A DNA stretch of 61,596 nt, taken from IMG/VR virus record IMGVR_UViG_3300009111_000003. The stretch is one strand, 5' to 3'. Made by a program: the position numbers and the translations under genes. Of this stretch, positions 10,881 to 12,062 are shown piece after piece; the first letter of the stretch is position 1; each line of letters starts with the position of its first letter. The notes beneath the pieces were generated by a model that worked only from the letters and a program-made list of their open reading frames with translations, did no database searches and had not been told where the DNA came from. The DNA comes from a virus.

Positions 10881-11128
10881 AGCGGATTTTGCCCCGTTCG
10901 TGCCAGTCGATCGGTTTTTGGCTAAAAAGCGAGAAATCGAGATGAAAAGTTCTCGGTATATGCAATTCGTGGGACTGGGTTGGGTAGTGAATGAAATAGT
11001 AACTCACTGAAATCGGGCACCCTCCATGCCCGTTGCAAAGCGCGCATGCAAAACTGGTATGCAATAAAACGCATATTGTATGCAAAGTAACGTAACGGTA
11101 ACGCCCGACCCAAAACGCGTTTTGACCG

Positions 11129-11156
11129 TTGCACTTCACGCCTGCACGGGCATAAT
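11129..11156 (+). promoter_or_regulatory. Candidate sigma70-type promoter for paralogue 1 (TTGCAC-16-CATAAT)
   Basis: The sequence reads ttgcac ttcacgcctgcacggg cataat. The downstream leader carries three GGCAGGCA motifs (11201-11248). Confidence 0.4.
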
Positions 11157-11253
11157 CATTAGTGACGCCCTCACGGGGCGCACGCACGTTGACAAGTGAA
11201 GCGTGGCAGGCAGGCAGTGCAGGCGCACTGTTTGACTGATAGGCAGGCACACA

Positions 11254-11886
11254 ATGAAGTATGAAGCGCGTTTGACTGTAGTGAAGGCACTGCACGCACT
11301 AGGCAAGGCACTTGTTGACCTACAAGCACTGTTTGACACAACGCCCGTCAACAAGCGCGTGCAGGCAGTGAAGGCGTTTGACAGGGCACTGTTTACGGCA
11401 TGCGTTGACGCGCATGACGGCAACGCTGATACCGCTATCAGGCAGTGCCGTTTTCACGCCTTCACGTTGCCCTACGTTGACGCTGTAGGGCATGCGTTTG
11501 CCGTTGACGGTGGCGCAAAGCGCGGGCAAGTGACGCTACTCACTTGCACTGATACAACGGGCAAGGCGTTTGCCGTTATCACTGCACTTGACGGCAACGC
11601 TGCAAGCACAAAGTGCGTTGACACGTTCACGGGCACGCTAGCGTTTGACCGTGCAAAGGCGTGCTACCGTGCAGTGCGTGAGGGCATGCCCTACGTTGTG
11701 AAGGCAAAGGGCAAGTTTGCCGTTAGTGACAACGGGGCGCACGTCAACGCTGCACTTGTTACCGTTGCAGCGTATGAAGGCGCAACGGGCAAGGCAAAGC
11801 GCACGTTTGACGTGTACCGTGCGCACGGCACAAAGGGCAAGGGCACGGCATACCGTGCAAGTGAGGGCAAGGCACAAAGGCAGTAA
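11254..11886 (+). CDS. Unknown protein, paralogue 1 (210 aa), with atypical composition
   Basis: It aligns collinearly with ORF 12294-12851 (RFHAF, GHAFAxDGGxKRGQ, RAKAxYRAxREGxPYV, KGKFAV, HVNAA). There is no canonical SD. It lies in the VGA/TCB-free island. Confidence 0.7.
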   Translation: MKYEARLTVVKALHALGKALVDLQALFDTTPVNKRVQAVKAFDRALFTACVDAHDGNADTAIRQCRFHAFTLPYVDAVGHAFAVDGGAKRGQVTLLTCTDTTGKAFAVITALDGNAASTKCVDTFTGTLAFDRAKACYRAVREGMPYVVKAKGKFAVSDNGAHVNAALVTVAAYEGATGKAKRTFDVYRAHGTKGKGTAYRASEGKAQRQ

Positions 11887-11923
11887 CAAGGGCAACGCCT
11901 GCCACGCTTTACTTGACGGCACG

Positions 11924-11958
11924 GGGCGCATGCTACACGGCATGCGCCCTTTGCTTTG
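11924..11958 (+). terminator. Rho-independent terminator
   Basis: 10-bp stem gggcgcatgc / gcatgcgccc with loop tacacg, followed by tttgctttg. Confidence 0.7.
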
Positions 11959-12062
11959 CCCGTATGCAAACGCATCAATAGCCGATTTTATGCCATAGGA
12001 AAATCACTGCACCACGCTGTAGTGCGATAGTGGCACTTGGAAAACGCCCGAAAACTCAAGAG

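Follow-up and report, generated by a model that had tools for sequence, protein, structure and literature searches.

Why does one short cassette of a phage genome lack a set of trinucleotides that the rest of the genome uses freely? We addressed this question in a window of 61,596 nucleotides (nt) from IMG/VR virus record IMGVR_UViG_3300009111_000003, the window being the whole stretch of DNA analyzed. Positions 11027 to 11982 of this window form an island nearly free, on both strands, of the words VGA and TCB, that is, AGA, CGA, and GGA and their complements TCT, TCG, and TCC, which are six of the 64 trinucleotides. The island carries an open reading frame (ORF) of 210 codons at 11254-11886. 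The initial annotation had proposed that this cassette was selected either to be invisible to an enzyme with a very short motif, such as a nuclease or an RNase, or to remain unmodified. The observation was confirmed and generalized to a clade of related phages, and remaining unmodified is the best supported of these options. The cassette looks like a deliberately unmarkable starter gene, which is previously undescribed.

Exact counts between 11027 and 11982 gave no AGA, GGA, TCC, TCG, or TCT and a single CGA at 11106, in agreement with the near-total absence that had been reported, and the tolerated words TGA and TCA occurred 31 and 12 times. At the genome density of 0.117 VGA/TCB sites per nt, approximately 114 sites were expected in the island, compared with the one observed. 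The site-free gap from 11106 to 11983 measured 877 nt, whereas the next longest gap in the 61.6 kb was eleven-fold shorter (77 nt), and the chance of an empty 877-nt gap is of the order of e^-100. A sliding-window count and a codon shuffle had been suggested as checks. Sliding segments of 500 nt contained 58.5 sites on average (standard deviation, 10.4), and zero was reached only at the island. When the synonymous codons of the 210-amino-acid (aa) ORF were redrawn from genome usage, 49 ± 5 sites were obtained (minimum, 32 in 5,000 draws), and when its own codons were shuffled among synonymous positions, 24 ± 3 sites were obtained (minimum, 12), compared with zero observed. Because both resamplings leave many sites, the depletion is not a codon effect. 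The noncoding flanks of the island held one site against approximately 38 expected, and the emptiness was equal on the two strands. The depletion covers the promoter region, leader, ORF, and terminator, as the initial annotation had stated, and its coordinates and its description of the codons also proved correct: serine is encoded solely by AGY, the codons GGA, AGA, and CGA are unused, and T precedes every GAN codon. The neighboring paralogue B (12294-12851, plus strand), a protein of 185 aa with 51% identity to the island protein, had been described as ordinary and rich in these words; it holds 72 sites in 558 nt, which is normal for the genome.

Island-bearing contigs were assembled independently from ENA and JGI samples, and the island was also present in public runs of 9 studies; it is therefore not an assembly artifact. 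Other, weaker depletions in the island affected CCA/TGG, ACC/GGT, and AT. The words GCA, GGC, ACG, and CAC were enriched, and AA/TT, TTT, and CAA were mildly enriched. The T content of the island was below that of the genome, and the GC content of the islands of the window and its relatives was 1 to 7 points above that of the respective genome.

Distant relatives were chosen by their large terminase (TerL), which showed 55 to 75% identity to that of the window, and the desert was found at the same map position in five related lineages. The observed and expected numbers of sites were 20 and 133 in L001, 1 and 87 in L007, 1 and 75 in L009, 0 and 81 in L015 (951 nt), and 0 and 26 in L013, in which the island only begins, at the contig end. 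In these islands, the most depleted trinucleotides were exactly CGA/TCG, GGA/TCC, and AGA/TCT, and TGA/TCA were at or above expectation. The protein family of the window's island was limited to the window phage and L001, which carries the same two paralogues and whose island copy is the depleted one. The island genes of L007, L009, and L015 belong to a second family without detectable homology to the first (hhalign probability, 0.3%). Both families also exist in ordinary composition, the first as paralogue B of the window and of L001, and the second as the downstream paralogue B of L009 and, in L010, as the sole first early gene. From these two families and the ordinary-composition versions of both, it follows that the signature belongs to the locus and not to the protein, and that at least two unrelated genes have been subjected to it. 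The phenomenon does not depend on duplication, because L015 has just the island copy and L010, which lacks an island, has just the normal copy. In L009 and L001, the island runs from the putative promoter to just past the terminator; in the window, L007, and L015, it overshoots the likely transcript by 100 to 230 nt at one end or both.

The substitution patterns indicated how the words had been lost. The window and L001 islands were approximately 70% identical in the ORF and much less so in the flanks, and both were depleted. A strain variant from another study showed 21 differences in the island and zero new sites, although 26.5% of random substitutions would make one. Relative to the ordinary homologue, the single-step routes of loss were V>T (39), A>C (23), A>G (22), G>A (22), A>T (18), G>C (13), and G>T (5), and a further 175 positions of loss showed multiple changes. 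V>T, the most frequent single route, converts VGA to the tolerated TGA. The same trick altered the conserved ribosome-binding site, which reads GG-AAAGGGTGA in genes of ordinary composition and GT-GAAAGGGTGA in genes within islands. The varied routes of loss, together with 21 strain changes that made no new site, indicate ongoing selection at the DNA level rather than a single mutational process, gene transfer, or codon bias. A constraint on double-stranded DNA, and selection acting through differing substitutions, had both been argued in the initial annotation; the equal emptiness of the two strands bears out the former, and the many routes, which involve all three positions and every direction, bear out the latter. 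The DNA constraint is paid for in amino acids. Glutamate accounts for 1.9% of the island protein versus 5.9% of the paralogue and serine for 1.4% versus 4.3%, and the island protein is poorer in Glu, Ser, Ile, and Pro and richer in Ala, Thr, and Val.

Outside the island, the same context appeared in the genome-wide statistics of restriction-like words. Palindromes were strongly avoided (observed/expected, AGCT 2/182, GGCC 12/191, CCGG 61/195, and TTAA 0/23), and CCWGG was also avoided (60/144). The absent 6-mers included GTGCAC, GGTACC, AGCGCT, CACGTG, ATGCAT, GGCGCC, CATATG, CCGCGG, and TACGTA, and GCATGC, GAATTC, GATATC, and TGTACA were at expectation. GA-initial restriction-like words survive only after A, C, or G. 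The most underrepresented 5-mer was TGATC/GATCA, with 5 occurrences versus 121 expected. GATC itself occurs 242 times, in 237 cases as V-GATC-B, and by preceding base its observed/expected counts were 168/131 for A, 162/133 for C, 149/100 for G, and 5/121 for T (pooled V-GATC, 479 versus 364). GAACT behaved similarly (T-prefixed, 3/40; A, 65/69; C, 98/83; G, 98/72), as did GAGAC (T-prefixed, 4/25; other prefixes, normal), and the T-prefixed shares were 0 of 37 for GAGACC, 0 of 13 for GACTGC, 0 of 5 for GAGCCC, and 1 of 24 for GACGTC. In the nonavoided words GAATTC, GATATC, GANTC, and GAGG, the T share was normal. TCATGA, whose GA/TC steps are solely TGA/TCA, occurred once versus 12 times expected. 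The ten 6-mer palindromes with VGA on both strands all showed observed/expected ratios of 0.58 to 0.92, whereas 13 of the 30 other 6-mer palindromes had ratios of 0.15 or less (Fisher p = 0.016; Mann-Whitney p = 0.017). Words that carry VGA on just one strand were still avoided (GGWCC, 47/124; GGATG, 92/147), as expected under hemi-protection. TGATC avoidance was common to all relatives (20 versus 191 expected, pooled).

Two observations stand beside these statistics. The five TGATC/GATCA positions are 2933, 4569, 4898, 5178, and 12657, four of which cluster in a 2.3-kb part of the capsid/scaffold region. The island holds 6 of the 33 GCATGC sites as well as the sole TGCGCA and the sole GCGCGC of the genome, and some genome-avoided palindromes are thus tolerated there. 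General palindrome avoidance was tried as a description of the island and failed, with GCATGC, TGCA, and GCGC enriched in it.

The island and the genome-wide statistics are both explained by one assumption, namely, that VGA blocks restriction on its strand and TGA does not. The best explanation, to which we give about an even chance, is thus a postreplicative, strand-specific modification combined with a selected, unmodifiable first-gene island. The phage DNA would carry a base modification targeted to GA after A, C, or G (VGA, complement TCB), sparing TGA/TCA and shielding those restriction sites that have the motif on both strands. The island would then be the only part of the virion DNA that is chemically ordinary whatever the modification state. 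Less certainly, the immediate-early expression of a small, probably DNA-binding protein would be made independent of modification, and this protein appears to act on lineage-specific repeats around the cassette; in some lineages, a paralogue of normal composition is retained downstream. The benefit might be that a modified template or promoter is read poorly by the unmodified host machinery, that the cassette is the leading injected end and must escape modification-dependent defense, or that the flanking repeat/origin (or regulator) function needs native DNA. The fuller proposal, a modification-proof "native DNA" cassette in a freshwater/wetland siphophage clade with an undescribed VGA modification sparing TGA, is more tentative, and we place it somewhat short of an even chance. 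In that proposal, the sparing of TGA would incidentally leave the sigma-70 -35 box TTGACA untouched, and unrelated first early proteins would have been recoded time and again, even in their amino acids, to keep the cassette native.

Several points weigh against this explanation. L010 lacks an island yet shows the same TGATC avoidance, so an island is not a necessity of this lifestyle; on this evidence it is advantageous rather than obligatory. The genome's only TGCGCA and its only GCGCGC lie inside the island, which is odd for DNA that escapes restriction by sequence alone. Some of the losses specific to T could instead concern 6-nt recognition sites whose first letters are TGA by coincidence. 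Pfam scans, which covered window ORFs of at least 75 aa on the expected coding strand, found no TGT/DpdA, Que, methyltransferase, or Mom-like domains. The known GA-modifying phages iggy and CAjan have neither a VGA-free island (longest gaps, 229 and 114 nt, respectively) nor TGATC avoidance, and because they show neither signature, the island phenomenon is not general to known GA modifiers. Finally, we infer the modification from sequence statistics alone, and the purpose of an unmodified cassette is likewise an inference.

Among the alternatives, the strongest, though an unlikely one, is that a harmful nuclease, nickase, or DNA-base-modifying toxin with 3-nt specificity attacks VGA, and that the target-free gene is expressed during the attack, or before the rest of the genome enters, with a product that neutralizes the agent. 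DarT-type ADP-ribosyltransferases, which act on 3- to 4-nt motifs in single-stranded DNA, are an example of such an agent, and virus-encoded enzymes with 3-nt sites include Nt.CviPII (CCD) and Nt.CviQII (RAG) of chloroviruses. The complete, strand-symmetric, and locus-specific avoidance, the position as the first early gene, and the pairs of a starter and a normal paralogue in three lineages would all agree with this alternative. However, the other 60 kb carry VGA/TCB at 0.117 per nt, and V-prefixed GATC, GAACT, and GAGAC are favored over the T-prefixed forms, which is the opposite of what a harmful VGA predicts. Moreover, L015 has only the island copy and L010 only the normal copy, and structure comparison of the island proteins found no toxin- or antitoxin-like fold. 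A constraint at the RNA level, by which the island mRNA would be immune to an endoribonuclease cutting at GA/UC (a HEPN-type defense or a phage shutoff RNase), is less probable still. It agrees with the span from putative promoter to just past the terminator in L009 and L001 and with the structured transcript described below, closed by a 19-nt stem between its 5' and 3' parts, but the sense strand lacks VGA and UCB equally, which an RNase would not impose; the islands of the window, L007, and L015 exceed the likely transcript by 100 to 230 nt, and the GATC context effect is genome-wide and hence a property of DNA. Of the options offered by the initial annotation, remaining unmodified is favored by the context-dependent avoidance of sites, and invisibility to a short-motif nuclease or RNase fits poorly with 60 kb rich in VGA/TCB, with the overrepresentation of V-GATC, and with a strand symmetry that is unlike an RNase.

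Mutation and ancestry offered even weaker accounts. Local hypermutation, in which a context-specific deaminase or mutator acting on first-entering or highly transcribed DNA eroded its own motif, is very improbable. The TC/GA context is typical of some cytosine deaminases, and the mild enrichment of AA/TT, TTT, and CAA in the island would suit such a process; however, no more than 22 of the 142 single-step routes were G>A, each of the three positions changes in all directions with V>T the commonest, and the T content of the island is below rather than above that of the genome. The sharp borders and the purifying selection on the amino acid sequence also argue against it. We consider acquisition from a donor lacking the motif, or a plain compositional or codon bias, to be scarcely credible. 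The GC content of the islands, higher by 1 to 7 points, is what such an origin might leave, but the genes of the islands have ordinary paralogues or orthologues within these phages, the effect spans two unrelated families and takes in noncoding flanks, and the signature has been kept through approximately 30% sequence divergence. In addition, when 1.84 billion representatives were searched with a profile, homologues of the island protein turned up solely in this clade, plus one marginal match. Three further ideas were set aside: depletion of CRISPR protospacer adjacent motifs, which gives no ground for locality; primase trinucleotide sites, which a degenerate motif set does not fit; and Chi sites.

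The anatomy of the cassette was analyzed in detail. The ORF (plus strand; family A1) had no match in Pfam, PHROG, or NCBIfam. A putative promoter, read by eye, lies at 11129-11156 on the plus strand (-35 TTGCAC, 16-nt spacer, -10 CATAAT); a strict consensus promoter scan did not detect this pair, and CATAAT, GATAAT, or TACAAT boxes occupy equivalent places in L007, L009, and L001. Within the predicted transcript, the ORF is bracketed by a 19-nt inverted repeat of 95% complementarity, whose 5' arm is at 11193-11211 and whose 3' arm, at 11897-11915, lies between the stop codon and the terminator (both plus strand). The predicted transcript was more structured than shuffled sequences (z = -4.6). 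An intrinsic-terminator-like hairpin of 12 pairs (8 G-C) with a T-rich tail is predicted at 11923-11950 (plus strand), and the island border falls approximately 30 nt past it. The island ORF of L015 is bracketed by a perfect 15-nt inverted repeat (L015:2997-3011 and 3812-3826); this repeat and that of the window were both significant.

Upstream in the island, (T)ATGCAA is repeated three times (11046-11085, plus strand), with more copies at 11963-11969 and 12155-12161, and these are possible operator or iteron sites. Dense lineage-specific repeat arrays were also observed at the first early gene of relatives, of the CGTTAAGG/CTTAAG type on both sides of it in L015 (2730-2950 and 3940-4250) and L013 (240-480) and of the AGATCTTTCTATA type in L010 (8170-8330), a layout like that of an initiator or regulator gene with iterons. 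Because lineage-specific repeat arrays flank the cassette (TATGCAA in the window), the small, basic, fast-evolving cassette proteins are suggested to be sequence-specific DNA binders, acting as regulators or initiators.

Homologues of the island protein were not found in scans of INPHARED phages (DNA and protein) and IMG/VR. AlphaFold models of the two island-gene families were of low confidence (pLDDT, 57 and 63), and Foldseek and VIA-align comparisons of these models gave no meaningful match, just a coiled-coil tail. We also considered an invertible segment and a diversity-generating retroelement. For the former, the ORF does have flanking inverted repeats, no recombinase domain was found, and all assemblies showed a single orientation without strand-switch joints; for the latter, the Pfam scans found no reverse transcriptase domain, and the differences between the paralogues involve all bases.

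The surroundings of the cassette were also informative. The initial annotation had placed it next to a packaging/control region, and the island does head the early arm, beside the putative small terminase gene terS (9832-10563, minus strand), which is assigned by its position upstream of TerL only and leads the leftward late arm. The divergent control region between terS and the island (10564-11026) contains conserved GGGG-N2-CCCC palindromes, TGCCTACGCTTTTTTT repeats, and a CACTGAAAT box. This box lies at 11005-11013, and in every lineage the same box stands just ahead of the island. The conserved parts of the region (10600-10840 and 11005-11013), which L001, L007, L009, and L010 share, also include an imperfect inverted repeat of 42 nt. 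The conserved elements may represent a cos/pac site or a regulatory element. By analogy, a lambda-like cos arrangement would plausibly make the cassette the last DNA packaged and the first injected. The contigs of L007, L008, L011, L012, L013, and L014 end 1.5 to 2.9 kb upstream of TerL, within or beside the control region and island, far above the chance frequency; this clustering could reflect either physical DNA ends or repeat-induced assembly breaks. Upstream of paralogue B, two TTGACA-type promoter-like sites and a AAGGGTGG ribosome-binding site were present. Paralogue B was considered as a motif-rich counterpart of the island and rejected, its site density being within 1 standard deviation of the genome mean.

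The window is the complete genome of a novel, uncultured freshwater phage. A 123-nt overlap joins its termini into a circular map of 61,473 bp. Comparison with 50,697 phage records at the DNA level gave no match, and the polymerase of the window is at most 36% identical to those of known phages. Independent assemblies of several freshwater and wetland metagenomes yielded the same genome. Structural genes encode TerL (7725-9335), a Mu-type portal, a lambda-E-type capsid protein, a gpD-like decoration protein, and tail proteins. The replication genes encode an SNF2 helicase, a Cas4-like nuclease, AAA_24 and DUF669 proteins, and a primase-MCM helicase, and further genes encode a DnaE-type polymerase and ThyX. 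The late arm runs leftward from 10563 and the early arm rightward from 11254, so that the early arm opens with the island as its first transcription unit; the control region, of approximately 460 nt, lies between the island and the putative terS. Antisense to the small early genes of public assemblies, four long ORFs of 255 to 285 aa were observed on the minus strand (13290-14117, 14282-15049, 16282-17097, and 20053-20910). These are probably spurious, and the two of them that were scanned (14282-15049 and 16282-17097) had no family match. No tRNA was found in the window, and no Rfam family was found between 9 and 14 kb.

We also examined where a modifying enzyme might be encoded. No scanned ORF matched PF01702 at E < 0.01, although a very divergent DpdA may have escaped the scans. 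The preQ0 supply genes (FolE, QueD, QueE, and QueC) and a preQ0 transporter were not found in the window. Among the relatives, only L010 carries a gene of the Vut_1/YhhQ family, a family of preQ0/queuosine-precursor transporters, which lies among structural genes (L010:17930-18520) and is a hint of 7-deazaguanine chemistry in the clade. By position and domain content, a candidate slot for modification or nucleotide metabolism extends from 31450 to 35090 on the plus strand and may be linked to the island. It contains a phage-type 332-aa protein resembling FAD/NAD Rossmann oxidoreductases and not TGT-like (31450-32448, plus strand), for which the PDB gave no sequence match; a dUTPase_2-NT5C/HAD fusion (32592-33491, plus strand); an SDR (34368-35090, plus strand); and two ORFs without assignment. 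The slot is the place of the dpdA/folE/queCDE genes in CAjan and iggy and is followed by the DnaE polymerase and ThyX genes. The replication module (SNF2, Cas4-like PD-(D/E)XK, AAA_24, DUF669, and primase-MCM), at 23671-31145 together with 31450-39088, is syntenic with that of Queuovirinae and Iggyvirus.

If the modification and its unmodifiable island are real, the clade carries a new context-specific phage DNA modification, directed at VGA and not TGA, with no recognizable DpdA, methyltransferase, or Mom-type enzyme, and its candidate genes lie in a defined slot at 31.4 to 35.1 kb. It would then follow that phages can carve an unmodified zone in a modified genome, and that modification has a price for an early function (for example, transcription, binding at an origin or by a regulator, or exposure to modification-dependent defense), a price that is undocumented at the sequence level. 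The cassette would be the first instance of an unmodified island programmed into a hypermodified viral genome; a literature search on unmodified regions in modified phage genomes returned nothing relevant. A local desert of a degenerate word combined with context-dependent survival of restriction sites would also provide a computational screen for modifications and their target motifs in uncultured phages. Even if the modification proves not to exist, a conserved, strand-symmetric trinucleotide desert, maintained by selection, that has changed two unrelated proteins still needs explaining.

Known DpdA systems are among the closest comparisons. In phage iggy, DpdA replaces approximately 97% of the G in GA with preQ0 (PMC10484667), and Escherichia phage CAjan modifies GA and GGC, with TGA scored slightly below AGA, CGA, and GGA (PMC7544227). 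The proposed modification resembles these systems of CAjan and Pseudomonas phage iggy in its strand-specific, GA-centered target of dinucleotide scale and in the proposed protection of GA restriction sites; the replication/recombination module is similar, and the genomes are of approximately 60 kb. It differs in that the window has no DpdA/TGT or preQ0 synthesis genes detectable by the Pfam scans. The largest gap in iggy, of 229 nt (MN029011, 27624-27853), falls at a convergent gene junction, and a 209-nt VGA/TCB-free gap lies near the iggy genome end (L017, record 60016-60225); both are far smaller than the islands.

A leading early segment also has counterparts in other phages. The first-step-transfer (pre-early) region of T5 and the leading early region of T7 are short segments with the first expressed genes, exposed before the rest of the genome is protected, and that of T5 is reported to lack the sites of a restriction enzyme that cuts elsewhere in the genome. 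In the island lie the leading gene of the early arm, a promoter-like site, and what is predicted to be a strong terminator. In T5 and T7, however, it is ordinary 6-bp sites that are missing, and a physical DNA end and two-step entry set the segment, whereas in the island the missing word is a degenerate trinucleotide that is fully removed at a cost in amino acids. As in classical restriction-site avoidance, short words recognized by an enzyme would have been removed by selection; classical avoidance, however, concerns 4- to 6-bp sites across the whole genome, and the avoidance in the island is confined to one locus and to six of the 64 trinucleotides, a word abundant elsewhere in the same genome. 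Finally, mRNAs without ACA escape MazF-type mRNA interferases, so that a gene lacking a 3-nt word stays expressed. That case is strand-specific and acts at the RNA level, whereas the island is free of its word on both strands and in nontranscribed flanks.

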